Below, one piece after another: positions 1-55,893 of a stretch of 55,893 nt of DNA. Positions within the stretch are counted from its first letter, which is position 1; every line of letters begins with the position of its first letter. The stretch is taken from positions 1 to 55,893 of the IMG/VR virus record IMGVR_UViG_3300022562_000664, one strand, 5' to 3'. Source of the DNA: a virus (taxonomy: Duplodnaviria; Caudoviricetes). The notes beneath the pieces are model-generated. The model was given only the letters and a program-made list of their open reading frames with translations. It did not search any database and was not told the DNA's origin. A program made the translations under genes and the position numbers.

Positions 1-383
1 GACATTCAAGGAAGTCTTGCTAGATTTTTATGATGAAATCACACGAGCAGTTATCCGATACCTGGCCCATCAGGCTCTTGTGGGGGTATTTCAAGGCCAA
101 GGGGGATTTGGCCTAGGTAATTTCCTTCTGCCATTTGGAGGAAGCGGACTGTTAGGCGGGCTGTTAGGGTTCGCTCACGGCGGTTCTTTTATGGTAGGAG
201 GGAAGGGCGGCGTGGATAATAATGTACTATCGCTAAACGGTTCGCCTGTCGCTAAAGTATCTCAAGGGGAAACTGTAAGTGTAACTCCACAAGGTGATCC
301 TAGTTTTGGCGATCTATTCAACATCACTATCCAGGCCATTGATGCGCTATCTGTGAGAGACCTGTTTATGAAAGAAGGTAGTT
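1..383. repeat. Terminal direct repeat (circular overlap), left copy of 55511-55893
   Basis: Sequence 1-383 matches 55511-55893 with 9 mismatched bases; positions 245-383 are identical. Confidence 0.95.
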
Positions 384-32369: not shown

Positions 32370-32566
32370 TGCTCAAGGACTTTGAACATGCTGTCGCAGT
32401 TGCGATGGACCAAACATCCAACTATCCTGATGGAAAACAACTCGGTCAGCTTCACGCTATCCTTATGGCGCTGACTGAGGCAAACAAAAGGAAAATTGAA
32501 CAATGTCTGAGCAAGAAACGTGGTCGCAAAGAAAGCGTTTCTTCATTATCATCGGACTCGCAGTAG
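32366..32566 (+). CDS. Hypothetical protein
   Basis: ATGA coupling; GAGG RBS. Confidence 0.5.
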   Translation: MMLKDFEHAVAVAMDQTSNYPDGKQLGQLHAILMALTEANKRKIEQCLSKKRGRKESVSSLSSDSQ

Positions 32567-32736
32567 GAGCTTGGTTGCCATGGTTATTATTCGCCGCGTC
32601 CCTGGGCCTGTTATGATTGAAATCAGAACCAAATCAGGCAAGCTCAAATCAATTGAGTGGGCGCGATCAATGTCTGCTGCCCGGCTTCGCTGTGCTGAGA
32701 TGAATGAAACATACGAGACGAAAGAGTGGGATGATA

Positions 32737-33078
32737 ATGCCTTGGGAGAAAGTTAAAAACTTGAAGAGTGATGTTCGTGCTAGAATAGAAGTCAAAAACT
32801 ATTCTGGTAGGCGTGAATACACCTACATTGCCTTTTACTTTAAGCCTGAGTTATTGGATAGAATGGGATTATCTCTTGGATCAAAAGTTGACATTGAGAG
32901 GGATGCTGAAAAGGATTTGTGGAAAATTACAAGAGGCCAGGATTTCACTATTGGTGAGTGCAATAAATGGCTCTCAATTCGCGTCCCTGCTGAGAAACAT
33001 CTAGTGAAATCAAAAGCCGAAAACTGTGAGTGGAATTTAGATGGAGATGCGCTAATAGTTCAGTATCAGCCCCAGTAA
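32737..33078 (+). CDS. Hypothetical protein (AbrB-like pattern)
   Basis: ELLDRMGLSLGSKVDI resembles an AbrB-type swapped-hairpin motif. Confidence 0.55.
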   Translation: MPWEKVKNLKSDVRARIEVKNYSGRREYTYIAFYFKPELLDRMGLSLGSKVDIERDAEKDLWKITRGQDFTIGECNKWLSIRVPAEKHLVKSKAENCEWNLDGDALIVQYQPQ

Positions 33079-33105
33079 CCGTAACTTAGGAACTATTCTC
33101 ACTCG
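33075..33105 (+). repeat. 31-bp direct repeat, copy 2
   Basis: Matches 12281-12311 with 1 mismatch. Confidence 0.9.
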
Positions 33106-33309
33106 GTATTGGTTATACTAGTGAGAATTGTAATCTTTGGTTACTGTGGTTACTGCGTATAGTAAAGAACTGAAACATCTAGTAAAATGGTAACCAGTAT
33201 TCGTAATTCAGAATATGTACCTATTAGAAATAGGGTGATTGATTTATAAGGATATTTTATTCACTATCTTAGATTGTACCGACTGAGGTGCGGATACAGG
33301 AGTTACGCT

Positions 33310-33429
33310 ATGGAAGACGCTATATTGGATTTCATCTATCAAAGTGAAACATCTATTGAAATGGTTACGAGGATTTGGTTTTTAGTAGTAATAGCTGTAG
33401 CACTGTTTGTGGTATGGTTAAAAGATTGA
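33310..33429 (+). CDS. 39-aa membrane peptide (not in ORF track)
   Basis: AGGAG RBS; hydrophobic C-terminal half. Confidence 0.45.
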   Translation: MEDAILDFIYQSETSIEMVTRIWFLVVIAVALFVVWLKD

Positions 33430-34005
33430 TAGATACCGGGAGAAAACTCTCAATAGGCACTCTATCATTACCCTAATTTGTACCGTATGAAAAATACTCC
33501 TAGTTACGGGTTACTGTATTGTGGCCCTTGCTGGGCTTCCCCCCGGTTTTCCTGCGAAAATTGAGGTTGTGCGCCGTAACTGAGGTTCTGTGTTCGGGTA
33601 CGCTAGGCCCGCCACTCACTCATTCAACACATGACATTTTTCCACCCAAGACCATTGTTCGCGGTTCGTTCTGTTTGATTTTCTGTGTGGATGGGTGTCC
33701 GTACCGCTTCTATAAATTTTGAAAAGTTGCACACTACGCCGCTGAATGGTAAAAAAGGAGAATAGGCGAGTGATAGCGTGGGTGGATGGGTTAATGTATG
33801 GATGCTATGAGTGTCCCTACCGCTTCAGTGCATCACGAAAGCACTGCTCATGTAGAAATGGGTGGATGGGAATTTGGAAAGCAGGAGCCTACGCCGCATG
33901 AGCGGGTGGATGGATGGAAGGATGGACGCGCGGGCGCGCGCCAGCGGCCCAGGGCCTCACAGCCCCAGGCTCGCCAGATCATTCGTACACTAACGGTCAG
34001 TCAGC

Positions 34006-34069
34006 CAACCAGGCAACCAGGCAACCAGGCAACCAGGCAACCAGGCAACCAGGCAACCAGGCAACCAGC
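34006..34069. repeat. Tandem repeat (CAACCAGG)x7 plus one variant copy
   Basis: Read directly. Confidence 0.95.
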
Positions 34070-34086
34070 CACGCGCCCACAGACAG

Positions 34087-34175
<89 letters not shown>

Positions 34176-34186
34176 AGCAACCAGGC

Positions 34187-34333
34187 TCAGCGGGTCATTC
34201 GTTCACGAATAATCGCACGCTTCACACGGCGGCGGCGCATCACGCGCTCAAACTCGTCAGACAGCCACGCGCCCAAAGCCAAGCCAGTCATAAACGCAGC
34301 TAGCAGGACCAGCATCAGGATTAACTCGTTCAT
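34187..34333 (-). CDS. 48-aa membrane protein MNELILMLVLLAAFMTGLALGAWLSDEFERVMRRRRVKRAIIRERMTR (not in ORF track)
   Basis: GGAG RBS, upstream promoter, TM segment plus basic tail. Confidence 0.65.
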   Translation of the reverse strand: MNELILMLVLLAAFMTGLALGAWLSDEFERVMRRRRVKRAIIRERMTR

Positions 34334-34362
34334 CGTTTTCTCCATTCTTAAGTCTATCTAAA

Positions 34363-34391
34363 ATCCTACTCCAGCCACGCGGGGAAGTAAA
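34363..34391 (-). promoter_or_regulatory. Sigma70-like leftward promoter TTTACT-17-TAGGAT
   Basis: 17-bp spacer; A/T tract upstream. Confidence 0.6.
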
Positions 34392-34424
34392 GAGATTTTT
34401 TTATTTTTTTTTCGTTTCTCCCTC

Positions 34425-34453
34425 TTTACTTTTCCCTTCGGGCGCCCTATATA
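34425..34453 (+). promoter_or_regulatory. Sigma70-like rightward promoter TTTACT-17-TATATA
   Basis: 17-bp spacer; T tract upstream; mirror of the leftward promoter. Confidence 0.65.
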
Positions 34454-34511
34454 TAAGAGGCGTAAGGGAATAGGCCCGACGCTAGACTTAGGAAAAGGAA
34501 AGGAAATAGGA

Positions 34512-34973
34512 ATGAGTTCCGTAGGATTTAAGGGCTTCGCGAAACCGTCGAAAGTCGAGAACCTCGACGCGGCCCTAGAAAATATTCCCGCCGACGAATA
34601 CGTATTTTATACGGGCGGGAATTACGGGCGGCGGCGCGCTTCCGGGCGCTCCGCTTCCCTCGCGACCGTAACCGAGGTCCGGAAGCCTATCCCGGTTCGC
34701 GAATACGCGAAACGGGCCGCGACTTCCGGGCCGGGCGGGACCGGTTTCCCGACTTCTATCTCGGTCGGCGGGTTAGGACTTCATTCCGGCGCTAAGCCCG
34801 CCGTTTATCTCTACCTCGTAAGGGACGCGGCGGGAAATTTCCGGGCGAAGAAAGATATTCCTAACCCGGACCGCGCTTTCTCGGAGACGCCTTTTAAGGC
34901 GGGAGACGTAGTAATCCCCGCGCCGAAGGCGACGGGCGCGGAGACTAAGAAAATCGCGGCCCCTAAGAAGTAG
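34512..34973 (+). CDS. Basic 153-aa protein encoded without CA/TG dinucleotides; possible DNA-binding immediate-early protein
   Basis: AAGGA RBS, own promoter and terminator; no Q/W/C/internal M; motif similarity to 28427-28876. Confidence 0.8.
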   Translation: MSSVGFKGFAKPSKVENLDAALENIPADEYVFYTGGNYGRRRASGRSASLATVTEVRKPIPVREYAKRAATSGPGGTGFPTSISVGGLGLHSGAKPAVYLYLVRDAAGNFRAKKDIPNPDRAFSETPFKAGDVVIPAPKATGAETKKIAAPKK

Positions 34974-34996
34974 AGCTAAGACCTCTTTAGACCTAG

Positions 34997-35026
34997 GGCG
35001 CGGCCTTCGGGCCGCGCCTTTCTTTT
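34997..35026 (+). terminator. Intrinsic terminator
   Basis: GGCGCGGCC-TTCG-GGCCGCGCC-TTTCTTTT. Confidence 0.9.
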
Positions 35027-35137
35027 CCCTTCGGGCTGGTGTTTTCGAGGGAGAAAATTTCTGGCTCTATCGGGACTCCGCCAGGGACTTTTGAGCGCGA
35101 ATTCAGATTCCAGCCTTCTTTGCCCTGATAGCGTCAG

Positions 35138-35389
35138 TCATGGCGCGTCTCTTAAATGGTCAATTAAATCTTCCAGCATTTGCACAATTTCTGACCGCCG
35201 GTAATCATCACCAAGTTTTTCTGTTATATGTCGGCATTGCATTGGCCAGGAAAATGGGCTGCGCCAACCGCGAATATTTTCGACCATCTCGCAGAGAATC
35301 TCACACTGGTCTTGCTCGGATGCACCGACAAAGGCGTCCGCAATTTCCAAGTTTGAAATCGTTTTTGAAAGAGTGACTTCAATCGGCAT
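35138..35389 (-). CDS. Hypothetical protein (83 aa)
   Basis: GGAGG RBS before ATG at 35389. Confidence 0.65.
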   Translation of the reverse strand: MPIEVTLSKTISNLEIADAFVGASEQDQCEILCEMVENIRGWRSPFSWPMQCRHITEKLGDDYRRSEIVQMLEDLIDHLRDAP

Positions 35390-35411
35390 TTTCCTCCAAC
35401 TCCCAAATCTT

Positions 35412-35455
35412 AAGGAAAGAAGCCCCGGTGTGCGTTTGGGGGGCACCGGGGCTTC
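35412..35455 (-). terminator. Terminator-like hairpin
   Basis: 12-bp stem GAAGCCCCGGTG/CACCGGGGCTTC followed by TTTCCTT on the minus strand. Confidence 0.6.
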
Positions 35456-35665
35456 AAGCAGCAGCGTTGGATTTAGTTTCCCCTCACTACATGCGCAACT
35501 CCAACCTGGTTGATAAAAATGGCGGGTTTTTCTTTATGTCACCGCCCCTGGGTTTCTACCAGCACACCCTATGCCTAGCGGTCCTCAGCACAGGCTTCGC
35601 TTCTATGAGATTCCATCAGGAAGGACAAGTTCCAATCACCATCTCAAGTGCCGCGCGATAAAGTA
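35412..35665 (-). ncRNA. Candidate structured non-coding RNA or leader
   Basis: TATAAT box at about 35666-35671 (minus), several hairpins, ends at a terminator, no long minus-strand ORF within it. Confidence 0.3.
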
Positions 35666-35716
35666 ATTATACGTCTAGACGGGATGAGGCGAAAGCGTTA
35701 AAGTTGATCATGTTAA

Positions 35717-35745
35717 TTGACCAGTCCATTGACTCCTGCTATAAT
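35717..35745 (+). promoter_or_regulatory. Sigma70 promoter TTGACC-17-TATAAT upstream of the terminase genes
   Basis: Near-consensus boxes with 17-bp spacing. Confidence 0.7.
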
Positions 35746-35766
35746 GGCAATGTTGTAAGGTCTCCA

Positions 35767-36162
35767 GTGGTATCTCTCAAGAAAGTTCGCAGAACAGGCA
35801 GAGATGCCTCAACCAGCAATATAATTCGCAGGACAGAGCCCCCGACTGTTCAAGAGTCGGTTGTTCGCATTATCAATGAATGTGACCCGGTTGGCTTCCT
35901 GAGTGATATAGTCAATGGGAAGGCCATTGAATGTCACGTTGTTGGTGAAGATGGCCAAATCACAACGTTTTATGAGACACCTACCCTCAAGCAGCGTCTT
36001 CAGGCAGCTAGTTTCTTGGCTGAGAGATATTTGCCAAAGGTGGCGGTTGTTAAGCACGCGCATCTTCACAAAAGTGCCGATAAGCATACGCCCGGTGAGG
36101 AACGTTCTTTTGGTCAGATTGTGACGCATGCAGCTCAGAAATCATCCAATAGTAGCGAGTGA
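35767..36162 (+). CDS. Terminase small subunit (putative)
   Basis: Directly upstream of TerL; DPVGFL...RLQAASFLAERYLPK pattern; start inferred downstream of the promoter. Confidence 0.65.
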   Translation: MVSLKKVRRTGRDASTSNIIRRTEPPTVQESVVRIINECDPVGFLSDIVNGKAIECHVVGEDGQITTFYETPTLKQRLQAASFLAERYLPKVAVVKHAHLHKSADKHTPGEERSFGQIVTHAAQKSSNSSE

Positions 36163-37669
36163 GCAAGAGGTAAAGGCACTTCAATACTGGACCCAAAATC
36201 CAATTGAAGCTGTCAAGGCCTGGTTCAACGTTACTCCAGAACCATATCAAGCAGACATCATCAATGCTCTCTTGAAGCCGGGGGCAGATAAGGTGTCACG
36301 TGTGGCTGTTAAGTCAAGTCACGGTGTGGGTAAGACGACCACAATGGCCTGGTGTGGCTGGGTATTCCTTATGACCAGGATGCTCAGTAAGACTGTGGCC
36401 ACGGCCCCGACTGCGCACCAATTAATGGATGTTCTTTGGCCTGAATTTGCTAAGTGGCATGCAAGGATGCCCAAGGAGATGCAGGCAATATGGGATGTGT
36501 CAGCAACCCATGTCAGGTGTAAGAAGTATCCATTATCCTGGTTTGCTGCGGCGCGGACCAGTAACAAGCCCGAAAACATGCAGGGCTTCCACGAAGATCA
36601 TATCTTGGTGTTGTGCGAGGAAGCTAGTGGTATTCCGCCAGAAATATTCGAGGTCATCGAAGGTATCTTGTCCAACGCAGAAGAGCATGAGCAAGAGGCT
36701 CTACTGTTACTTGCGGGAAACCCGACGCAGACGGGTGGAGAGTTCTACAATGCGTTCAATCGCAATAAAGACATCTACAACCGCTTCACAGTAACCGGGG
36801 ATGAAACAACTAAGCCAGACCGGGGTGCGGGCAAGTTTTACTTCTCCAAGCGGGTCAGCAACAAATACCGCACCAACATGGAGAAGAAATATGGGCTCGT
36901 ATCGTCAGTATACGATGTACGCGTGCGTGGCCTTTTCCCGACGATGGCCGACGATGTTGTCATCCCTCTGGAGTGGGCCGAGAAAGCACAGTTCAAGATG
37001 CTCCCTCACTTCGATAGGGTATCAGACCCGATTACCCTGGTTATGGACGTTGCCCGTTTTGGTGGGGACAAGACTACCTTGGCCGTGTTCAGGAAGGGTC
37101 ACTGCTTGGCTATGCACAAGTGGCCCAAGACTTCTGGCACTCAGTGCTGCGATATTATGCAAGAAGCATATCACCATGGCGCTTTCGGTGTAGGCTCAAT
37201 CCCGGTCATTCGCGTTCTGGTGGATGAGCCTGGTGTTGGTGGGCCGGTAATTGACATGATGAGGCGCCAGGAGATTCCTGCCATTGGTTATCATGGTGGC
37301 GTAACCATGAAGCGTGGCGAGGATCACGACGAAGATGTGCGCATGTTTTTCAACCGGCGATCTAGGGATTGGTGGAATTTGCGCCGTAAGATGGAATTGG
37401 GGTTGATTAAGATTCCTGAAGATGAAGATTTGGTTAATGAATTGGCATCAGTCAAATATGAATATGTAAATGAGAAGATCAAGGTGGAAACTAAGAAAGA
37501 CATGCGTGAGCGCCTAGGGGATGATGCAAGTCCTGACCTGGCAGATACAATTGTAATGGGCTCTGCTCCGTATGTTGGCACCACCAATATGGTGCCTTTA
37601 GAAACACTTGATCTTGAACAGGCGATCATATACGGTGAAGATCGCCCGACAGCTCACCAGGATTTCTGA
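36128..37669 (+). CDS. terL: Terminase large subunit
   Basis: Walker A SSHGVGKTT, Walker B LVLCEEA, GNPT, nuclease MDVARFGGD and SPDLAD. Confidence 0.93.
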   Translation: MQLRNHPIVASEQEVKALQYWTQNPIEAVKAWFNVTPEPYQADIINALLKPGADKVSRVAVKSSHGVGKTTTMAWCGWVFLMTRMLSKTVATAPTAHQLMDVLWPEFAKWHARMPKEMQAIWDVSATHVRCKKYPLSWFAAARTSNKPENMQGFHEDHILVLCEEASGIPPEIFEVIEGILSNAEEHEQEALLLLAGNPTQTGGEFYNAFNRNKDIYNRFTVTGDETTKPDRGAGKFYFSKRVSNKYRTNMEKKYGLVSSVYDVRVRGLFPTMADDVVIPLEWAEKAQFKMLPHFDRVSDPITLVMDVARFGGDKTTLAVFRKGHCLAMHKWPKTSGTQCCDIMQEAYHHGAFGVGSIPVIRVLVDEPGVGGPVIDMMRRQEIPAIGYHGGVTMKRGEDHDEDVRMFFNRRSRDWWNLRRKMELGLIKIPEDEDLVNELASVKYEYVNEKIKVETKKDMRERLGDDASPDLADTIVMGSAPYVGTTNMVPLETLDLEQAIIYGEDRPTAHQDF

Positions 37670-37670
37670 A

Positions 37671-39062
37671 ATGGCAACAAAGCCTCGTCGGCGTGGCCGC
37701 CCGTCAAACCGAGAGCGTGAAGCAACAGTTGTCGGCTCGCAATTAATCTCCTGGCAACTACCAGGTGGCAATCGCGATAAATTTGAAATGGTTTCGCCTG
37801 ACGATCTTTTGACTCGTCGTGGCTGGAGCATTTACCGAGAGATGACCGCCGATGATCAAATTAAGGCGGCACTATGGTACAAAAAGACACTTATTTGCGC
37901 CAGACCATTTGATGTGAAGCCTGCTTCTGATTCCGCGGTTGATAAGGAAGCAGCAGAGTTCATCCAGAAGAATTTTGATGCAATAAATTTTAAGCGTGTC
38001 TTGTGGGAAGCCTTGTCAGCTTTTTCTTTTGGTTTTTGTGCAGGAGAGATTCTTTGGGAAATTAGTGGTACTCCACCTCAGCTTCACTTAAAGGCAATCA
38101 AGTTCCGTGATCCAGAGTGGATGTACATATATAGTGATAAGCATGGCAACATCACTGAGTTTGTTCAGAAACCACCGAACCCAATAGATTCCAAAGCAGA
38201 GATCAAGCTGCCGCCTGAGAAGGTGTTTCATTACGCCTACCAGAAAGAGTTTTCCAATCACTATGGAATCTCTGATTTGCGTGGTGCTTATCGCGCATGG
38301 TGGTCAAAGAAGTATGTGACGCAGTTCTGGAACGTTTTCCTTGAGCGTTTCGGCGCACCTCTCATGAAGATGACTTATCCTCATGGGAGTTCAGAGCAAC
38401 TGAAATCCACTCTTAAAAGCATCATGACCAATTTGTCCAGTAAAACGGACATTCTTGTTCCAGAGGGTGTGGTCATTGAGCTGATTGAGGCTACGCGCGC
38501 CGGCCAGGCGAAATATGAGGAAGCGTTAACCTACTATGATATTCGGATCGCTTCAGCTATACTCATCCCTGCCCTGCTGGGTATGGGCACAGACATCAAG
38601 AGAGGATCGGACAGCCAGTCTCGACTTCACCTAAGAACCTTGATGAAGTTGGTCCAGTATCTTGGGTGTGAGATTGCTGAAGAAATTCAAAATAAGCTGA
38701 TCAAGCCACTAGTTGATGCAAACTTTAATACAGAGGAATATCCAACATTCACCTTTCAAGACTACGGTGAGTTTGAAGCATTTGAGATCACAGATGCAAT
38801 TAAAGAGTTGTTCAATGCTGGCATCCTTGATATGGATCAAGAAGATGTCAACTATGCTCGTTCCGTCTTGGGGCTCAATATAAGGGACGAGGACCATGAG
38901 GATGAGATCAGGCGTCCAGACCCGTCTGCTCTACCTCAGATGCCAGGCGGCAACGCTCAAGCGGAAAGCGGCGGCGCGAAGCAGGGCAATAAACGTGCTG
39001 AAAAAGGAGCCAGCACACGTAAGACTGACCAATCGGGGCGCACCAGACCAAGTAGGAGATGA
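37671..39062 (+). CDS. Portal protein (DUF935 / Mu gp29-like)
   Basis: YGISDLRGAY...WNVFLERFGAP...IKPLVDANF. Confidence 0.88.
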   Translation: MATKPRRRGRPSNREREATVVGSQLISWQLPGGNRDKFEMVSPDDLLTRRGWSIYREMTADDQIKAALWYKKTLICARPFDVKPASDSAVDKEAAEFIQKNFDAINFKRVLWEALSAFSFGFCAGEILWEISGTPPQLHLKAIKFRDPEWMYIYSDKHGNITEFVQKPPNPIDSKAEIKLPPEKVFHYAYQKEFSNHYGISDLRGAYRAWWSKKYVTQFWNVFLERFGAPLMKMTYPHGSSEQLKSTLKSIMTNLSSKTDILVPEGVVIELIEATRAGQAKYEEALTYYDIRIASAILIPALLGMGTDIKRGSDSQSRLHLRTLMKLVQYLGCEIAEEIQNKLIKPLVDANFNTEEYPTFTFQDYGEFEAFEITDAIKELFNAGILDMDQEDVNYARSVLGLNIRDEDHEDEIRRPDPSALPQMPGGNAQAESGGAKQGNKRAEKGASTRKTDQSGRTRPSRR

Positions 39063-42409: not shown

Positions 42410-43134
42410 AAATCCTTGTTAGTTGCTGCGACAATGGCAGTGGATTATTCATGTGTGAAGATGGAGAGTGGACCCATCTTGTAGACACTCACGCTCAATC
42501 TGTTCTTCGCACCCCACTTGGAATCATGTTGATGACAGAAGGGTGGATTTTACTTTATGATGAAGAAAGGTTGAAGAAAAAAGAATTAAGTGTCATTACA
42601 AGAACAAAGTTTGCTTTGAGAGGGCACCATGGTTCCGTATGGGATGATCAGACAGGTCTTGTGGCTACAGTCTCTTCTGACGAAAACACTATTTATTGGA
42701 CATGCCCAATCTCAGGTGAAAAGAAGCGAACACTTGAAGTCAATCGCCCAGGTTCGCATACCAATGACATTGACATTGATGGAAGCGAAATCTATGTGTC
42801 AAGTTTCCATCGCGGGATTACACGAGTAGATAGGGAAACTGGTTCTAGACAAGAGCTTTGGGTTGGAGAAGAAAAAGCACATTCCGTTAAAAAAGTCAAT
42901 GGTGAAGTCTGGTGGTGCGAATCAGATCAGCGACGAGTGAAAAGAAATGGTAAAATTGTTTCTGAGTTTCCAGGCTTTCCAAGAGGTTTGGAATGGTACA
43001 ATGGTGATTTAATTGTTGGCATTTCTCGCCATAAATATCGCGAAGAAGGACATGCTGGATTCTATTACAATGATTCATTTTACTCTGTTCCTAATGGCGT
43101 CACCAATGTTTATGATTTGTTGGTTTTAGAATGA
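42406..43134 (+). CDS. Beta-propeller protein (TIGR03032/DUF4915-like)
   Basis: HTNDI, AHSV, FPGFPRGL...LIVGIS. Confidence 0.6.
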   Translation: MKILVSCCDNGSGLFMCEDGEWTHLVDTHAQSVLRTPLGIMLMTEGWILLYDEERLKKKELSVITRTKFALRGHHGSVWDDQTGLVATVSSDENTIYWTCPISGEKKRTLEVNRPGSHTNDIDIDGSEIYVSSFHRGITRVDRETGSRQELWVGEEKAHSVKKVNGEVWWCESDQRRVKRNGKIVSEFPGFPRGLEWYNGDLIVGISRHKYREEGHAGFYYNDSFYSVPNGVTNVYDLLVLE

Positions 43135-43808
43135 AGTATCCGAGACTCATCCAAGAAATCCACCAGATTGAAGTCACCACTAGGTGTAATCTGCGTTGTA
43201 GATATTGTCCCCACCCAAAGATGCAGCGGCCAAAAGAGGATATGGAATTCAAAACATTCCTCAGAGCTATGCACTGGGTTGAATATTTCTATCAGCGCGG
43301 ACTACAAAGTGAACTTTCATTTACAGGGATTGGTGAAAGCACAATGCATCCCCAGTTTAAGGAGATGTTGCTTTTCGCCAGAGACCGTTGCCCGAATATG
43401 CCAATTTTGTTCAGCACCAATGGATTGCCAACCTTTGACGAGGACTTAGCAAAGCTGTGTTCAAAGATTGGCATTCAGGTGATGGTCTCACTTCATCGCC
43501 CAGAGATGGCAGGTAAGTGCATTGAGCTTTGCAAAAAGTATGGCATATTACGATATGTCAACAATGCTTTTGCCACTAGTGCTTTCAATTGGGCAGGGCA
43601 AGTAGAAGGTTGGTTTAACTCTGCTCCATCAACTCCATGTGCTTATTTAGCTCGTGGATGGGGAGTTGTTCTTCAAGATGGTCAAATTACTACTTGCTGT
43701 CTTGATTCTGAAAATTACGGGGTAGTGGGCACAGTTTGGGATGAGCCCGGTTCACTGTCAATTGCTCCGTATAAGTTATGCGAAAATTGTCACGAACAAG
43801 TTCCATAG
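43131..43808 (+). CDS. Radical SAM protein with SPASM/twitch-like C-terminus
   Basis: CNLRCRYC, GIGES, STNG, C...GQITTCC...LCENC. Confidence 0.92.
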   Translation: MKYPRLIQEIHQIEVTTRCNLRCRYCPHPKMQRPKEDMEFKTFLRAMHWVEYFYQRGLQSELSFTGIGESTMHPQFKEMLLFARDRCPNMPILFSTNGLPTFDEDLAKLCSKIGIQVMVSLHRPEMAGKCIELCKKYGILRYVNNAFATSAFNWAGQVEGWFNSAPSTPCAYLARGWGVVLQDGQITTCCLDSENYGVVGTVWDEPGSLSIAPYKLCENCHEQVP

Positions 43809-46638: not shown

Positions 46639-46766
46639 TTATGGGTTAGTGACGAAGCGGGGCACACTATCTTCGTCATCTAATCCCATAGTGCGCACGT
46701 GGGTAGGGGGATGGTTGCTCGGTGCCCCGGTGCCATCCCCCGCACCACACAGCAAAGGGGCATATC

Positions 46767-49664
46767 ATGGAAGTTGTTATCTTGGCGCAGGGCCTACCTT
46801 TTGGGCCCACCACCATTGAGCACCGTTCTCTTGGTGGATCAGAAACTGCTGCTTTAATGATGGCGCGTGAACTTCGGAAGCGCGGCCATCTTGTAAGCAT
46901 TTTCTGTAATCTCCCTCCAGTTGGATACCCTGACCATATTGAAAATGGTGCCCAAGATGATTTGGGCGTTCGTTGGGTATCTGGAGATCAATACCAAGGG
47001 TTCATCTCTAATACAGAAGTTGATCTGCTAGTTGTTAGCAGGAACCCTGATTTATTTCAGTGTGTCCATCAAGCTAAGAAAGCAGTTTTGTGGTGCCATG
47101 ATTTAGCAACCTATCAAGGTTTGCTACCCCGGCTTATGCAATCTGCTTGGAATTTTGATGAGATTTGGTGCGTATCTGAATATCACCGCCAACAAATTCA
47201 TAAGGTCACTGGCTACCCTCTTAAGAACATTAGGGCAACAAGAAATGGAATTGTAAAGTTTGATTCCATCCTTCAGCTTCCTAGAGAGGAAAAGACACTA
47301 TTATATTCAGCACGCCCTGAGCGTGGATTAGAAAATTTAGTCAAAGAAGGCGGTATTATGGAGCGCCTTCCAGAATATCATCTTTATGTTACCATGTACG
47401 AAAACTATCCAGACCACATGATGGACTATTATCGTTATTTGTGGTCAAGGTGTGAAGCTCTTGACAATGTAACGCTTCTTGGACCTAAGACGCAACTTGA
47501 ATTGCGCCAACTTATGCGTAAATGTTGGGCTTATTGCTATCCCACAGCTTTTGAGGAAGTCTCTTGTATCATTGCGCGAGAGTGTATTGAACAGAAACTT
47601 CCTTTTATTGGAACAACTATCGGTGCACTTCCAGAAACATTAAATGGCTGTGGGCACCTATTTGAGTGCACCAAAGAAGAAGTGGGAACAGAAAAGTTTT
47701 GTGAAGAATTTGCTGAATTTGTTAAAGGGGCCGGGCGTGAAATTATGTCAATTGAAGAAGCCTGTAGCCTAAGAAATGATTTATATTGGGATGATGTAGC
47801 AGAACAATGGGAAGAATGGTCAGTTCCTGAAAAGCCTACTGACTATTCTGCTATTCACTCTTTGATTCAAGATAGTGATATCATAGCTGCAAAAGCAGTC
47901 CTAGATACTATTCCAGAAGATAAGCGCACCCCTGGTATCAAATGGCTTGAAAATGAACTCAAGACAAAATATGAGTTTGTTTTTGGGAACAAGAAAATGG
48001 AGGATCATTACAAAGATATTTACGACTTTGAAGAATCAAAGCAAGTACCTGAGCGGCAATCAATGAAAACACTCAGAGGGCATGCCAGATATAACTGTAT
48101 TGCCCAACTTGCACAGAATGTTCTTCCTGGAAGCACAGTCATCGAATATGGTTGTGCTGAAGGACCAATCATTCTTCAGCTAGCACGAGACTTCCCTGAT
48201 CGCCATTTTATTGGTATTGACTTTGTAGAGGCAAATATTGATCTCTGCAAAAAGTACGCAAAAGAACATGACATCAATAATGTTAGCTTCTATACAGGAA
48301 GTGTCGATGATTGGCCAGCCGAAGTGGAAGAGGTTGATGCAGCAATCATCGCTGAAGTTTTAGAACACACAATTAAGCCATGGGAGATCATCAGTAAGCT
48401 AGAGAGCCACGTCAAAATTGGTGGCAGGATGATTCTAACCGTCCCGCAAGGCCCATGGGAGTGGCAAGGCTTGAAGGGCCCTCAATGGCCCTGGAGGGCT
48501 CATATTTGGCACATCAATAAATGGATGCTGCGCAAGATGTTCGAGAACAAAGAAGAATGCATCTTGAATGCGCTCCAAGAAGGATACCACTACGATGGCC
48601 GAGTTTGTGGTCATTTGGTGATGGGTTATAAGGCAGATGGTGAGCCAGCAGTAGAAATTGATCCAATAGAAAAGGCCCGGTTGTCTAGGTATCGTCAGAG
48701 TATGGCAGCCTGCATGATTGCCATGAATGATGATGCAACTATTATCCGTGCGCTGGATTCAATTGGCAACTTTATTGAGCAATTGCAAATTGCTCTAGGT
48801 CCGTCCACTGACCACACCAGGGAAAGAATTGAAGAGTGGGCAAGCGAACATCCATGGGTAGAAACTAGAATCATTGATGTTCCTAAAATTGAAGCCAAAA
48901 AGTTTGGCTTTGATGATGCCAGAAATGAATCCATCAAAAATATTGAGTCAGACTGGATTCTCTGGATAGATTGTGATGAATATTTATCTGGGGACAAGAT
49001 TAGAGTTTTCACAAGGAACCACTGCTTTGATAGCTTGGCTATTCAGCAGCATCACTTTACTTGTGAGCCTGCTGGTGCTCCAGCCCAAATTGATAAGCCT
49101 GCCCGGTTGTTCCGAAACCGCATAGGTTTTGAATTCTTTGGCAAGGTCCATGAACATGCAGAGCTAGGCTTCAATGGTGGGCCGGGGTTTGTCCTACTTG
49201 TTCCTGGCGTTGATATTGGCCACACTGGTTATGTCAATGATGCTACGCGGATGAGTAGATTTGGTCGCAATTTTCCATTGCTTGAATGGGACCAAGAAGT
49301 TTATCCTGAGCGCAAACTTGGTAGGTTCCTATGGCTTAGGGACATCATCCATCGAATGCGACTTATTAATCAGCAAGGCAATGTAAATGAAGCTAGACGC
49401 CTAGCTGAAGAGGCTATAAACTTCTTCAAAGAATTTGGCGAATCCTTTGAAGCAATTGGTGGTGGAAGTAATGCCACCCTGGCCTATGTTTCTGAGGCCA
49501 TGCAATTTTTGGGCAGAGGTTGGCCCATGATTGTTGCTGTCCAACTAGAGGAACAAACAGCACAATATCAAGGGGTATTTGAGTCAGAGGAAGATGCTTT
49601 CAAGATTGCGAAGCGGGCACTGAAAGAGCAAATTGAAAAGCGCAAATCAGGATATTGGCAATGA
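46767..49664 (+). CDS. Three-domain fusion: GT4 (GT-B) glycosyltransferase, class I SAM methyltransferase, GT2 (GT-A) glycosyltransferase
   Basis: LGGSET, YSARPERGL, FEEVSCIIARE; EYGCAEG, AEVLEH, ILTVP; STD.T, FDDARN, WIDCDE, GKVHE, HTGY. Confidence 0.88.
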   Translation: MEVVILAQGLPFGPTTIEHRSLGGSETAALMMARELRKRGHLVSIFCNLPPVGYPDHIENGAQDDLGVRWVSGDQYQGFISNTEVDLLVVSRNPDLFQCVHQAKKAVLWCHDLATYQGLLPRLMQSAWNFDEIWCVSEYHRQQIHKVTGYPLKNIRATRNGIVKFDSILQLPREEKTLLYSARPERGLENLVKEGGIMERLPEYHLYVTMYENYPDHMMDYYRYLWSRCEALDNVTLLGPKTQLELRQLMRKCWAYCYPTAFEEVSCIIARECIEQKLPFIGTTIGALPETLNGCGHLFECTKEEVGTEKFCEEFAEFVKGAGREIMSIEEACSLRNDLYWDDVAEQWEEWSVPEKPTDYSAIHSLIQDSDIIAAKAVLDTIPEDKRTPGIKWLENELKTKYEFVFGNKKMEDHYKDIYDFEESKQVPERQSMKTLRGHARYNCIAQLAQNVLPGSTVIEYGCAEGPIILQLARDFPDRHFIGIDFVEANIDLCKKYAKEHDINNVSFYTGSVDDWPAEVEEVDAAIIAEVLEHTIKPWEIISKLESHVKIGGRMILTVPQGPWEWQGLKGPQWPWRAHIWHINKWMLRKMFENKEECILNALQEGYHYDGRVCGHLVMGYKADGEPAVEIDPIEKARLSRYRQSMAACMIAMNDDATIIRALDSIGNFIEQLQIALGPSTDHTRERIEEWASEHPWVETRIIDVPKIEAKKFGFDDARNESIKNIESDWILWIDCDEYLSGDKIRVFTRNHCFDSLAIQQHHFTCEPAGAPAQIDKPARLFRNRIGFEFFGKVHEHAELGFNGGPGFVLLVPGVDIGHTGYVNDATRMSRFGRNFPLLEWDQEVYPERKLGRFLWLRDIIHRMRLINQQGNVNEARRLAEEAINFFKEFGESFEAIGGGSNATLAYVSEAMQFLGRGWPMIVAVQLEEQTAQYQGVFESEEDAFKIAKRALKEQIEKRKSGYWQ

Positions 49665-52933: not shown

Positions 52934-55893
52934 AATTGTAATATCGGCAACGGCCAATGATGCCATTGGTACGTTTCGCCGCATGGAGGGCAGGCTTCAC
53001 CGCCTAGGTCGCCGCGTTCATGAGACCTCACTGCACTTTCGTCGCCTTGATCGAATTTGGTCGATCATTGCTTTATTTTCTGGTGTAGCACTCCTTAGAA
53101 AATTTGTTGAAATGGGCGCTGAGATGCAGCGCCTTCAGTTCCAGATTGCTGCTCTGACGCAAGATTTTGAAGGCGTCCCAGCGGTAATGGACCGCTTAGT
53201 TGCAACTACATCTAAGGTTCCATTTACTCTTAATACTATGGCTCAGGCGTTTGTTCGCCTGAAGGCTTCTGGTATTGATCCAATAACAGATGATCAAGGC
53301 AATGGTCCACTAAGGGCCATGGCCGATGCCCTTGCCGCATTTGGTGGCGGTGATGAGTTATTCAAGCGAATGACTATCGCCATCCAGCAAATGGCTGGTA
53401 AGGGCGTTATCTCGATGGAAGAATTAAGGCAGCAACTTGGTGAAGCTGTTCCAACGGCCATGCGTGTTATGGCCGAGCAAATGCGCATATCTGTTGCTCA
53501 ATTAATTCTTGATGTTAGTCGTGGTAGAGTTGAGTTTGAAGAAGGTTTTGATGCACTAATTAAGGGATTTGACGAAAAATTCCACGGGCTTGGTGAGGTG
53601 ATGAAAAACACCTTTACCGGGCAGCTCCAACAGACTGTAACTGAATTCCAAGTTTTATCTGAAGCACTTTTTGTTAAGTCTGGCGCTTTTGATCAGGTTG
53701 CTGCCGGCCTTGGCATAATGAATGCTGAAATCCGAAAGTTTTCAAAATTTCTTCAAAGTGATGCTGGGCAAGAGGCTATTAATAAGTTTTGGGATGGTAT
53801 TAGAAAGATTGCTGTATTTGCTGCCCAGGCATCTACACCATTAATTGATCTTATTGGAATAATCAAAGACCTTGTTGGGGCAATTTCTGCTGCCACTAGT
53901 TCCCTCCCAGCTGAGGTCGTTGGGGGTGGGCTTATTGGGTTTATCTTATTTGGTGGCAGAAAAGGTGCAGCGGCTGGCGCCTTATTTGGTGCTTTTAGTG
54001 ATGAAATTCGTGGCGTTATTCAAATTATAACAGGTCTTGTTCAAACATTATTTGGTTTTCTTAGTGCTTTAGGCCTTGAGGATGTTGCTGCTGGCGGCCT
54101 TATCGGGTTCTTTATATTTGGTCGAAAAGGTGGATTAATCACTGCAGCAATTTTGTATGCTGATGAGGTATTTACTTCAATTAATAAGATTGTAACAATT
54201 GTTATAGCAATTTTCTTAGGTTTGTGGGCAAGCATAAAGGCACAGGCTAATGAATTTTGGTCTGATCCTACTTCACTGTTTGATGAAGAGAGATTACTTA
54301 AGGTTGGCCGAGAAGCTGGTTGGAAAACAGTAAAAGCATATATTGAAGGTGCCAAGGCTGCTGGTGATTATGATACAGGCATCTTAGGTGAGATTTTTGA
54401 TGTTGAAGGTGGCAGTGAATTTGGCAATGAGGCAGCTAAGGCCACTGATGATTTCTTCAAATCAATGGCGGAATTGGCAAAGAAAGTTGCGGCCGCTCGT
54501 GCAGAAATATTAGCAGCCCAACAGCCACTAGAGGATATTGGTGGCCCAAGTCCAACTGATCTTGCTCAAATTCAGAAACTCGGAACATATCTTGAGCGCC
54601 TAGAGAAACAGGCTGCTGGAGCAGGCACGCAAATTGGTAATCTGCGTGCAGAAATTGCACAAAAACTTGGTGGTGTAGATAAAATTATCGGCAATCTGAA
54701 TAAACAGATTGATAAATTACCAGAAGGCGACAGCAAAATTGCTGGCCTTAAGGCGTCAATTGATACTCTTACTGCTACCAAGGGACAAATTGCTGCACTT
54801 GGCGAAACAATTATTGCTAACATTTCTGCTGAACAATTTGAGAAAACAGAGCAGCAAGTTGCTCGCCTTAGTGAGACATTTGATGAATTCTTAGTTGGAA
54901 CAACAGAAGGGTTTACTGCTCAAGAGTTAGCCATACAAAAAGTTGAGGCCCGGTTCGCTGGCTATCAATTACGCATCCAGCAGCTTACAAAAGCTGTTAT
55001 GGATAATATTGACGCAGATCATGGACAAGCTGCTGCATTAGCACTTCTGACCGATCTTCAGAATAAGATGAACGCGGCCAGAGAGAATGCTATTAAGCTC
55101 ACAAGAGAGCAAGCAGAAGCAACTAGAATGAAAACTGAGGCAGACATTGCCGAGCGCATTGTCGCCACTGATCTTGTAGTCACAGGATATGAATTAAGCA
55201 ATTCATTTGATGAAGTGGCACTTGCTGGGCTTCGTGCTCGTGAGCAATTAAACAATACATTCAAGAATATTGCAGATCAGATTCAGAGAATACAGGAACA
55301 ACAACAAGCAGGCATCATATCAGAAGTATATGCTCAAGCATCTATTGAAAGGCTCCAAGAGCTACAGACTAGGCTTGGTGAACTTGCTGACAAGTTTGTA
55401 GAAGTCGCAGAGTTCAATGCAAGTGCTTGGGGCAAATTGATGAATAATATTTACCAGAGCATGGAAGATTTTCTTGCTAACAGCATTCACGCTTTGGTGA
55501 CAGGGACCAAGACATTCAAAGAAGTCTTGCTAGATTTTTATGATGAAATCACACGAGCAGTTATCCGATACCTGGCCCATCAAGCTCTTGTGGGGGTATT
55601 TGGAGGCCAAGGGGGATTTGGCCTAGGTAGTTTCCTTTTGCCATTTGGAGGAAGCGGACTGTTAGGCGGGCTGTTAGGGTTCGCTCACGGCGGTTCCTTT
55701 ATGGTAGGGGGGAAGGGCGGCGTGGATAATAATGTACTATCGCTAAACGGTTCACCTGTCGCTAAAGTATCTCAAGGGGAAACTGTAAGTGTAACTCCAC
55801 AAGGTGATCCTAGTTTTGGCGATCTATTCAACATCACTATCCAGGCCATTGATGCGCTATCTGTGAGAGACCTGTTTATGAAAGAAGGTAGTT
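52905..55893 (+). CDS. Tape measure protein (about 1011 aa including 1-430; missing from ORF track because it runs off the end)
   Basis: GTG start; AIQQMAGKGVISMEELRQQLGEAVP tape-measure motif; in frame with ORF 17-430. Confidence 0.9.
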   Translation, partial: MPPVPTTDVRIVISATANDAIGTFRRMEGRLHRLGRRVHETSLHFRRLDRIWSIIALFSGVALLRKFVEMGAEMQRLQFQIAALTQDFEGVPAVMDRLVATTSKVPFTLNTMAQAFVRLKASGIDPITDDQGNGPLRAMADALAAFGGGDELFKRMTIAIQQMAGKGVISMEELRQQLGEAVPTAMRVMAEQMRISVAQLILDVSRGRVEFEEGFDALIKGFDEKFHGLGEVMKNTFTGQLQQTVTEFQVLSEALFVKSGAFDQVAAGLGIMNAEIRKFSKFLQSDAGQEAINKFWDGIRKIAVFAAQASTPLIDLIGIIKDLVGAISAATSSLPAEVVGGGLIGFILFGGRKGAAAGALFGAFSDEIRGVIQIITGLVQTLFGFLSALGLEDVAAGGLIGFFIFGRKGGLITAAILYADEVFTSINKIVTIVIAIFLGLWASIKAQANEFWSDPTSLFDEERLLKVGREAGWKTVKAYIEGAKAAGDYDTGILGEIFDVEGGSEFGNEAAKATDDFFKSMAELAKKVAAARAEILAAQQPLEDIGGPSPTDLAQIQKLGTYLERLEKQAAGAGTQIGNLRAEIAQKLGGVDKIIGNLNKQIDKLPEGDSKIAGLKASIDTLTATKGQIAALGETIIANISAEQFEKTEQQVARLSETFDEFLVGTTEGFTAQELAIQKVEARFAGYQLRIQQLTKAVMDNIDADHGQAAALALLTDLQNKMNAARENAIKLTREQAEATRMKTEADIAERIVATDLVVTGYELSNSFDEVALAGLRAREQLNNTFKNIADQIQRIQEQQQAGIISEVYAQASIERLQELQTRLGELADKFVEVAEFNASAWGKLMNNIYQSMEDFLANSIHALVTGTKTFKEVLLDFYDEITRAVIRYLAHQALVGVFGGQGGFGLGSFLLPFGGSGLLGGLLGFAHGGSFMVGGKGGVDNNVLSLNGSPVAKVSQGETVSVTPQGDPSFGDLFNITIQAIDALSVRDLFMKEGS
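55511..55893. repeat. Terminal direct repeat, right copy
   Basis: Matches 1-383. Confidence 0.95.

Follow-up and report, generated by a model that had tools for sequence, protein, structure and literature searches.

An uncultivated tailed phage carries an autonomous gene cassette, consisting of an inferred promoter, a gene and a terminator, from which every avoidable CA and TG dinucleotide has been removed on both DNA strands. The depleted zone of 659 bp holds only two CA/TG where 80.7 are predicted from local base composition (Poisson P(<=2) = 2.95e-32), and these are the TG of the ATG start codon at 34513 and the CA of the His codon (codon 91) at 34782. We refer below to the 55,893-bp stretch of DNA that was analysed as the window, and to the depleted zone as the void. 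The contig closes on itself with a 383-bp overlap, giving a circular map of about 55.5 kb. The void is maintained by continuing purifying selection, and it recurs in related phages, although not in every one of them. Why the CA:TG step is excluded is not resolved by this study; our preferred, tentative interpretation is that the cassette is kept free of a DNA mark or attack addressed to that step, although no such mark was detected.

The void is without parallel elsewhere in the window. Every 659-bp segment outside 34100-35300 has at least 71 CA/TG (mean 99.1, sd 8.9), and the three longest CA/TG-free gaps of the window are adjacent to one another (137, 269 and 255 bp), the next longest anywhere being 40 bp. 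CA and TG are in fact over-represented across the genome (observed/expected 1.20 each), whereas inside the void CG is at 1.58x, TA is at 1.34x and the GC content is 0.57, compared with about 0.45 for the genome. All eight trinucleotide classes that contain CA or TG fall to 0.02-0.13 of expectation, and no other word is missing. The encoded protein has no Gln, Trp, Cys or internal Met, and a single His. With the protein sequence held fixed, 2000 synonymous recodings gave a mean of 45.6 CA/TG (minimum 30) with uniform codons and 54.0 with the phage's own codon usage, while merely permuting the gene's own synonymous codons gave 22.4 (minimum 12). The observed count of two equals the minimum that the amino acids force. 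No comparable void was found in 80 TerL-related IMG/VR loci (minimum 15 per 400 bp), which were collected with a TerL alignment after TerL as a single query had found nothing, or in 120 unrelated viral loci (minimum 22). The features of the cassette and its surroundings are given in the table.

Features of the cassette and its flanks (positions within the window)
Position	Strand	Feature	Basis
34002..34186	.	Tandem repeats to the left of the unit: (CAACCAGG)n, then (GCAA) x22	Arrays of other units lie upstream of the gene in relatives
34187..34345	-	Divergent 52-aa predicted membrane peptide, normal CA/TG content, outside the void	
34378..35036	.	CA/TG void	Dinucleotide counts
34384..34394	+	Conserved upstream element GAAGTAAAGAG at the left edge of the void, followed by a T-rich tract (34395-34424)	Alignment of upstream regions; also present in homologous loci L002, L003 and L004
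34425..34453	+	Inferred sigma-70-type promoter TTTACT-N17-TATATA; the -10 lies inside a conserved palindrome, CCCTATA..TATAGGG-like; the hexamers depart from TTGACA at the positions that would create TG and CA	Read from the sequence; the same TTTACT-N17-TATAT(A/T) in L008 and L012; RNA contigs start downstream; not called by the consensus scan
34459..34511	+	5' UTR: 5'-proximal hairpin, then an unstructured purine-rich stretch with repeated GGA (ribosome-binding region)	Strand folding; a hairpin of different sequence at the same place in L002, L005, L008 and L012 (z -1.4 to -2.4)
34512..34973	+	ORF of 153 aa, pI 9.99	Conserved family; predicted fold, pLDDT 90.1
34995..35030	+	Intrinsic terminator: 11-bp stem with 9 GC pairs, then a T-rich tail	Called by the scan (34995-35020); folding
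35032..35046	+	Conserved boundary motif GGGCTGGTGTTTTC, function unknown; its first TG ends the void	Same motif, same strand, downstream of the gene in L002, L003, L005, L007 and in the non-void L011
35704..39062	+	Packaging genes always found downstream: putative terS (named by position only), terL 36128-37669, Mu-type portal 37608-39062	

The inference of strong selection on both strands, made in the original prediction, is supported, and more firmly than could be known from the sequence alone. Of 14 homologous loci for which DNA could be examined, seven are strongly depleted, three of these lying at or within one of the minimum their amino acids allow; one is half-depleted (sense-strand TG only) and six are normal. 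Fourfold sites among the void copies are near saturation, being only 31-49% identical to the window's gene, so that the void is selected rather than inherited by descent. It switches on and off between close relatives, as judged from a tree and an amino-acid proxy; for example, locus L009, with a terL 73% identical, is not void. The void has also reshaped the amino-acid composition of a whole subfamily. The original prediction had suggested that the single His may be essential; this is wrong for the wider family, because fully void relatives have Ala at this otherwise invariant position. Interestingly, the depletion is zone-shaped rather than protein-shaped. In L005 it continues for 504 bp past the gene, across two further small ORFs, with 12 CA/TG against 62.9 expected, and stops at the same conserved motif, the flanks being normal. 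A search of IMG/VR with this motif gave at least 120 hits, which we judged to be chance; only one (L024) is a relative, and there the motif lies inside terL.

The ORF encodes a real, conserved protein with 55 close homologues and a confidently predicted AlphaFold structure, but it matches no Pfam, PHROG or NCBIfam family. No relative was found by tblastn against phage or plasmid records, by scans of IMG/VR with the protein or its alignment, or by tblastn of a basal family member (P0098) against phages, and megablast of positions 33000-37000 against phages gave no match. Foldseek found nothing in PDB or BFVD at E<=0.001, the ESM Atlas gave no usable hit, and a PDB profile search gave 0 hits at E<=10. 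A wide structure search (VIA-align) gave a best Z of 4.5, with many winged-helix entries at Z 3.1-4.2 over residues about 40-120, and thus only weakly suggests a winged helix. A word-index search for longer homologues found none; an exhaustive profile search, however, did find distant relatives fused to HNH_2 (P0077) or to a UDG-type glycosylase (P0093, Roseomonas and Falsiroseomonas prophages), two fusion architectures among 106 cluster representatives. Two long repeat proteins with Fn3 or InlB repeats (P0149 and P0151) were rejected as false hits. The UDG domain (PF03167) is carried only by the 419-aa bacterial relative (27 bits against a cut-off of 24.3) and is absent from the window's protein.

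In two metatranscriptomes of one study, the only contigs on a 5.2-kb stretch are of this gene, covering 34469-34937 and 34496-34992, while a DNA contig from the same study spans 34185-36182. These contigs show RNA covering this gene alone; they do not show it to be the first gene expressed, as the original prediction had proposed. No Rfam family came near a gathering score, no tRNA genes were found, and GC skew was uninformative because almost all genes lie on one strand.

There are multiple possible scenarios for the agent behind the void. The original prediction offered three, namely a phage-made DNA modification in a CA/TG context, a host defence that must be dodged, and resistance of the mRNA to an RNase; none of them is shown. 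We tentatively favour the possibility that the CA:TG step is the address of a DNA-level activity acting on the rest of the phage genome, the most likely candidate being a base modification placed in a TG context on both strands, and the alternative a base-directed attack on such sites. The cassette would then be an island that this activity cannot touch, and would stay readable by unmodified host RNA polymerase whatever happens to the other roughly 8,300 CA/TG sites. Its small, very basic and perhaps winged-helix-like product may be a DNA reader module that binds the marked DNA, either shielding it or directing transcription from it, and the 5' hairpin and strong terminator would make a stable monocistronic mRNA. 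Consistent with an effect on duplex DNA, CA and TG are removed together, and the void includes about 85 bp upstream of the RNA contigs with no CA/TG. The on-and-off pattern among relatives is as expected if a gained or lost accessory function drives the void, and the fusions tie the family to DNA-acting enzymes, although the reader role rests only on these fusions and the weak fold hint. There is also a precedent for dinucleotide-addressed modification, because thymidine hypermodification in phages M6, ViI and phiW-14 was inferred at TG/TC (PMC6449724).

Other observations do not favour this scenario. No DNA methyltransferase, DpdA, hydroxymethylase, 5hmdU kinase or TET-methyltransferase-type system was recognised among the ORFs submitted to the family libraries (every ORF over 250 aa, plus selected ORFs of about 90-250 aa, but not the small early ORFs), several ORFs remaining unannotated, so that absence is not proven, and PDB sequence searches with four of the unannotated ORFs gave nothing. 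The phage carries ThyX, which argues for ordinary thymine, and its radical-SAM gene is also present in the non-void relative L011. Phage M6 itself has no CA/TG-poor gene (minimum 28 per 400 bp against a mean of 46.6), so a TG-context modification does not by itself demand a modification-free gene. In addition, L010 avoids sense-strand TG (4 against 11.4 expected, P=0.0003) but not CA (11 against 13.1), which suggests that the two halves are separable and fits a strand- or RNA-level agent better. DarT-type ADP-ribosylation receives no support, because DarT1 has no consensus motif and DarT2 uses TNTC-type motifs (PMC11543638).

More broadly, it is possible, although less likely than not, that a group of uncultivated marine-sediment and soil siphoviruses uses, or faces, a system addressed by the single CA:TG step, either a hypermodification or a base-directed defence, and that each phage carries a proof island encoding a new reader-type protein that manages the marked genome. 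Genes free of a dinucleotide would then be a general beacon for short-context modification or defence systems. Complete removal of a dinucleotide from a transcription unit, at the cost of five amino acids and even a conserved histidine, needs very strong and very local selection, and whatever reads CA:TG must have almost no sequence specificity beyond two letters. As far as our full-text literature searches could tell, no phage-host system with that property is described.

A second scenario, which we consider unlikely but cannot dismiss, is that the zone is the first DNA to enter the cell, in the style of T5 first-step transfer or T7 gene 0.3, and must carry no target for a host nuclease, glycosylase or base-modifying defence until its product neutralises that defence. 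The conserved motif would be at or near the physical genome end, and the tandem repeats would act as a pause signal. The cassette always sits directly upstream of terS-terL-portal, where cos or pac sites usually lie; the void ends exactly at a motif conserved in six loci; tandem arrays flank the other side in most relatives; and the patchy phylogenetic pattern is as expected from variable host defences. The product's domain is, moreover, shared with nuclease and glycosylase fusions found in prophages. However, no genome end was mapped on the self-closing contig, the Mu-type portal would suggest headful packaging and hence no fixed leading end, and the gene is transcribed towards the supposed end rather than inwards. 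We know of no defence with dinucleotide specificity, and the fused relatives are rare (1 of 401 sampled genomes of the class, that one being the centre genome itself).

Less likely still is self-avoidance, in which the protein binds CA/TG-containing DNA with low specificity, as a coating or silencing protein, and its own transcription unit has shed every site so that its synthesis is not shut off. In a broader version, a cassette without CA/TG is invisible to most sequence-specific DNA-binding proteins. The void follows this gene family and nothing else in 200 control loci, the protein is basic and DNA-binding-like, and RNA contigs are seen for this gene and not for its neighbours. On the other hand, all other phage genes carry CA/TG at 1.2x expectation and would be silenced as well, and two unrelated small ORFs share the depletion in L005. 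The conserved palindrome overlapping the -10 lacks CA/TG and looks like a specific operator, and TA steps, which are equally flexible, are enriched rather than avoided.

An RNA-level explanation, in which the mRNA survives a phage shut-off RNase or a host abortive-infection or collateral RNase that cuts at CA and/or UG, is disfavoured but not excluded. In its favour, 5' hairpins of different sequence are conserved at the same place in five loci, there is a strong terminator, and the transcript is seen on its own in the RNA contigs. The constraint is also tightest inside the transcribed part, since 1-2 CA/TG occur in the relatives' promoter regions, and L010, L009 and L006 keep a deficit of sense-strand TG while CA is normal (P=0.0003, 0.02 and 0.05). 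Nevertheless, CA and UG are reverse complements, which points to duplex DNA, and an RNase would need two unrelated specificities. The presumably untranscribed promoter DNA and upstream element of the window are void too, UA and CG are enriched, and avoidable reappearances in partly relaxed copies show no significant strand bias (5 CA against 11 TG, P=0.21). Finally, a functionless mutational footprint or relic of transfer, for which only the moron-like GC content speaks, is effectively refuted by the forced-minimum counts, by the 22-26 CA/TG that codon permutation restores and by the saturated synonymous sites; the sharp edges and normal flanks in every locus also speak against it.

Several known systems share individual properties with the cassette. 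It resembles morons, which are autonomous promoter-gene-terminator inserts in phage genomes, in its terminator and inferred promoter, in a GC content unlike that of its neighbours and in its expression without them; no moron is known to exclude a dinucleotide, however, and the position of this cassette is fixed and conserved across relatives rather than sporadic. Genes free of a toxin's cleavage site, such as what appear to be GCU-free genes with MqsR and ACA-less mRNAs with MazF, would likewise gain immunity through complete absence of a very short target within a single transcript, but those targets are trinucleotides on one RNA strand, whereas here both complementary dinucleotides are missing and promoter DNA is included. 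CpG and UpA suppression in eukaryotic RNA viruses, probably driven by ZAP and RNase L, is also avoidance at the dinucleotide level, in that case in response to a host sensor, although it is genome-wide, partial and at the RNA level, while the present case is limited to one phage cassette and is essentially total. The hypermodifications of M6, ViI and phiW-14, together with preQ0 at GA/GGC in CAjan (PMC7544227), show that phage enzymes can address a base through a two-letter context, including TG, although no modification genes or modified bases are shown for this phage. Classical restriction-site avoidance, in which depletion is confined to one or a few specific 4-8-bp words, does not describe the void. 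The T5 first-step-transfer region, which seems to lack EcoRI sites, and T7 gene 0.3/ocr, probably the first gene expressed, would offer the parallel of a short region with an early gene kept free of a target so that the gene can be expressed before the rest of the genome is at risk. In our case no genome end is mapped, a dinucleotide is excluded in every context, and the product, with 24 Lys+Arg against 13 Asp+Glu, is basic rather than an acidic DNA mimic of the Ocr/ArdA type.

The depleted region contains a single TG, in the ATG start, and a single CA, in the His91 codon, exactly as stated in the original prediction. The three longest CA/TG-free gaps in the window are adjacent to each other (137, 269 and 255 bp), whereas the fourth longest anywhere is 40 bp. 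Local base composition predicts 80.7 CA/TG, giving a Poisson P(<=2) of 2.95e-32, and all 659-bp windows outside 34100-35300 have at least 71 (mean 99.1, sd 8.9). Genome-wide, CA and TG are over-represented at 1.20 times expectation; inside the void, CG (1.58x) and TA (1.34x) take their place, and GC is 0.57 against about 0.45 for the genome. When the protein sequence was held fixed, 2000 synonymous recodings gave a mean of 45.6 CA/TG with uniform codons (minimum 30) and a mean of 54.0 with the phage's own codon usage, while permutation of the gene's own synonymous codons among their positions gave 22.4 (minimum 12). The observed 2 is the minimum that the amino acids force, and codon choice and every codon junction are therefore tuned. 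In the pooled void zones all eight trinucleotide classes that contain CA/TG are at 0.02-0.13 of expectation and nothing else is missing, so that the excluded unit really is the dinucleotide.

Coordinates of the features in the window and in related loci
Sequence	Position	Feature
Window	1-383 and 55511-55893	Terminal repeat, 97.65% identical (9 mismatches)
Window	33080-33990	About 0.9 kb with only short ORFs, rich in repeated GGTTAC/GTAACC words and GGATGG-type words, like iterons of a replication origin or a packaging site
Window	34002-34186	Intergenic microsatellite, (CAACCAGG)n followed by a perfect (GCAA) x22
Window	34378-35036	CA/TG void
Window	34440-34459	Conserved palindrome, CCCTATA(N0-2)TATAGGG-like, overlapping the inferred -10
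Window	34513	Only TG of the void
Window	34782	Only CA of the void
Window	34469-34937	Metatranscriptome contig (469 nt, word depth 17.7)
Window	34496-34992	Metatranscriptome contig (497 nt, word depth 8.85)
Window	34185-36182	DNA contig of the same study, unbroken
Window	35717-35745	Near-consensus sigma-70 promoter (TTGACC-17-TATAAT with an upstream TG, 11 of 12 matches), just inside the ORF called terS
Window	43131-43808 and 46722-49664	225-aa radical-SAM protein and 980-aa GT4 - class-I methyltransferase - GT2 protein, inside the head-gene module
L005	about 1850-1870 and 2290-2310	TTAA-N7-TTAA words
L009	about 345-360	TTAA-N7-TTAA words
L010	1356-1601	Half void
L013; L014	9959-11218; 9728-11218	Same domain fused to a UDG-superfamily domain, in Roseomonas and Falsiroseomonas prophage-like regions

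The window is an IMG/VR virus record that is labelled 'linear, 75% complete'; however, its first 383 bases repeat its last 383, and the map is therefore circular, about 55.5 kb and essentially complete. Nearly all genes lie on the + strand. They include tail genes of the RcGTA/phiJL001 type, a GH108 lysin and an NlpC/P60 domain, as well as an SNF2 helicase, AEP primase, UvrD helicase, ThyX, an exonuclease, a Pol III alpha subunit and an HNH endonuclease. The terL gene was identified by tblastn matches to annotated phage large terminases and has no Pfam family, while Pfam identified a Mu-type portal, a tail tube protein, the radical-SAM and GT4-methyltransferase-GT2 proteins and, as a weak sub-threshold match, the Mu-like prophage protein I family. 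The radical-SAM and GT4-methyltransferase-GT2 proteins could glycosylate virion proteins or, less likely, DNA; the radical-SAM gene is also next to the portal gene in L011, a homologous locus without a void. Among the ORFs searched no integrase, DNA methyltransferase, DpdA or hydroxymethylase was recognised, although several ORFs remain unannotated. In relatives, TTAA-N7-TTAA words resembling CtrA boxes overlap promoter-like sequences, and together with the RcGTA-type tail genes this hints at alphaproteobacterial hosts.

The gene within the void is real. Its 153-aa product has 55 homologues at 38-78% identity in a collection of 5.8 billion proteins, and with that alignment AlphaFold gives pLDDT 90.1 and pTM 0.82. 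The protein is very basic (pI 9.99) and matches no Pfam, PHROG or NCBIfam family, and Foldseek found nothing. An exhaustive structural comparison gave only weak matches (best Z 4.5), although the list is dominated by winged-helix DNA-binding domains (Fur/Zur, the winged helices of MCM, PriA, Cdc6/Orc1 and RPA32, and histone H1), which align over residues about 40-120; this is a hint rather than a demonstration. A profile search of 1.84 billion representatives found 106 family members, nearly all of them stand-alone proteins of 90-220 aa. Two fusions are informative: the member P0077 carries a C-terminal HNH_2 nuclease domain, and P0093, the 419-aa protein of Roseomonas and Falsiroseomonas, carries a UDG-superfamily domain (27 bits, cut-off 24.3). 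The bacterial copies sit in prophage-like DNA, where their neighbours are a large serine recombinase with DUF2924, an S24 repressor, an SNase, an AAA_24 ATPase, a PD-(D/E)XK nuclease and a helicase. The UDG fusion gene lies between the recombinase and the repressor, a typical place for prophage accessory or defence genes. The family is rare in cellular genomes; only 1 of 401 sampled genomes of that class had it, and that one was the centre genome itself.

DNA was obtained for 14 homologous loci (L002-L015), and their CA/TG counts were compared with those of synonymous recodings. Flanking DNA is normal in every locus. Between the window's gene and the void copies only 31-49% of fourfold sites are identical, and the void has therefore been held while synonymous sites turned over.

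Observed CA/TG in homologous loci against the mean of synonymous recodings with uniform codons
Locus	Observed	Expected	Forced minimum	Status
L002	3	48.1	3	depleted
L003	3	48.0	3	depleted
L004	4	44.2	3	depleted
L007	7	47.2	4	depleted
L008	7	45.0	4	depleted
L005	12	51.1	8	depleted
L012 (64 codons)	6	19.3	1	depleted
L010 (82 codons)	15	27.7	3	intermediate
L006	46	45.7	6	normal
L009 (94 codons)	25	29.6	3	normal
L011	52	46.9	6	normal
L013 (99 codons)	37	34.1	7	normal
L014 (99 codons)	44	34.1	9	normal
L015 (89 codons)	34	34.3	11	normal

At the protein level, the density of His, Gln, Cys, Trp and internal Met is bimodal across the family, at about 8-15 per 100 aa in distant members and 0-2 in many close ones. 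A quick maximum-likelihood tree (SH-aLRT support, midpoint root, proxy label) separates a basal group of 31, all with normal composition, from a group of 91 in which 46 void-like, 27 intermediate and 18 normal members are interleaved, and well-supported branches force at least 7 changes of state. Sister sequences can differ; for example, the members P0001 and P0002 score 0.7 and 3.9 at 78% identity. Interestingly, His91 is invariant in the 56 close homologues but is replaced by Ala, as is the neighbouring Gln, in members with no forced CA/TG at all (P0071, P0080, P0095 and P0101). The DNA-level constraint has overridden protein conservation, so that His is not catalytic.

From left to right, the window carries a conserved GAAGTAAAGAG element and a T-rich tract; TTTACT-N17-TATATA, with the -10 inside a conserved palindrome (CCCTATA..TATAGGG in L002, L003, L008 and L012); a 5'-proximal hairpin; a purine-rich ribosome-binding stretch; the ORF; an 11-bp GC-rich terminator; and the motif GGGCTGGTGTTTTC, whose first TG ends the void. 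The promoter is an inference and was not called by the consensus scan; however, the same hexamers and spacing recur in L008 and L012, and they depart from TTGACA at the positions that would create TG and CA. The palindrome looks like an operator for a dimeric regulator. 5' hairpins of unrelated sequence occupy the same place in five loci (z -1.4 to -2.4), and the boundary motif recurs on the same strand, downstream of the gene, in L002, L003, L005, L007 and the non-void L011. In L005 the depleted zone is 1,010 bp long (24 CA/TG against 125.1 expected) and includes two further small ORFs before the motif, while the 1-kb flanks are normal, with 106 against 122.6 on one side and 129 against 123.2 on the other. 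The property therefore belongs to a bounded zone, and not only to this protein's codons. The zone always lies directly upstream of the putative terS, terL and portal, in void relatives (L002, L005, L007) and non-void relatives (L009, L011) alike; a near-consensus promoter lies just inside the ORF called terS, and the true start of that gene may be further downstream. The zone also lies downstream of short tandem arrays whose unit differs from phage to phage (periods 8-20 in relatives), which probably explains why many homologue contigs are only 1-2 kb long.

Near-identical sequence is present in runs from 9 studies of sediment, soil, mangrove and sludge metagenomes, and contigs of four runs were compared with 32500-37700. 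In the two metatranscriptomes, which come from one study, the only contigs were two whole contigs that lie within the cassette, whereas a DNA contig of the same study extends beyond it on both sides. Contigs cannot give strand, ends or expression level, and DNA carry-over is possible, although carry-over would not single out this gene. We read the result as a monocistronic, comparatively abundant RNA, made when the flanking packaging genes are silent or far lower.

No void exists in 80 loci around related terL genes from IMG/VR (about 25-59% identity), where the lowest 400-bp count is 15, or in 120 unrelated viral loci, where the lowest is 22. Phage M6 (NC_007809) is one of the phages for which thymidine hypermodification at TG/TC was inferred from restriction resistance (PMC6449724), and it shares the layout of small early genes, then terS, terL, portal and a Mu F-like head gene. 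Its lowest 400-bp CA/TG count is 28 against a mean of 46.6, and its lowest windows are the intergenic regions near 3.2 kb and 29.5 kb, which are only mildly low. A TG-context modification does not by itself call for a void gene.

With regard to mechanism, the data demand an agent that is addressed by CA:TG and nothing more, that acts locally enough that freeing one cassette pays off, that differs between close relatives, and that is strong enough to cost the protein five amino acids. Duplex-DNA recognition is the simplest reading, because the two excluded words are reverse complements, every context is affected alike, and apparently untranscribed promoter DNA is included. Our preferred reading, which remains tentative, is that the cassette is an island that escapes a CA:TG-addressed base modification, or a base-directed attack, on the phage genome, and that it encodes a reader-type DNA-binding protein. 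The HNH and UDG fusions are perhaps what one would expect of nucleases and glycosylases that depend on a modified base.

There are other possible scenarios. A leading-end dodge of a host defence is possible but unlikely, and self-avoidance by a low-specificity DNA-binding protein is more doubtful still. An RNase-proof mRNA is the least likely of these three, but is kept alive by the stabilising hairpins and by L010, where only sense-strand TG is avoided (4 against 11.4 expected, P=0.0003) while CA is 11 against 13.1; L009 and L006 show a weaker version of the same thing. There remains a small chance, comparable to that of the stronger of these rivals, that the explanation is one we have not thought of. 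A neutral origin is effectively excluded by the synonymous recodings and by the turnover of fourfold sites.

Finally, we note that our full-text searches returned no paper describing a phage gene or cassette devoid of a dinucleotide. The agent, if found, could be categorically new. Target-site avoidance as a concept is nevertheless known, and its examples would include restriction sites, the apparently EcoRI-free entry region of T5, GCU-free or ACA-free transcripts, and probably CpG suppression against ZAP; the cassette differs from these in being a phage transcription unit from which CA/TG, as a dinucleotide, is excluded.
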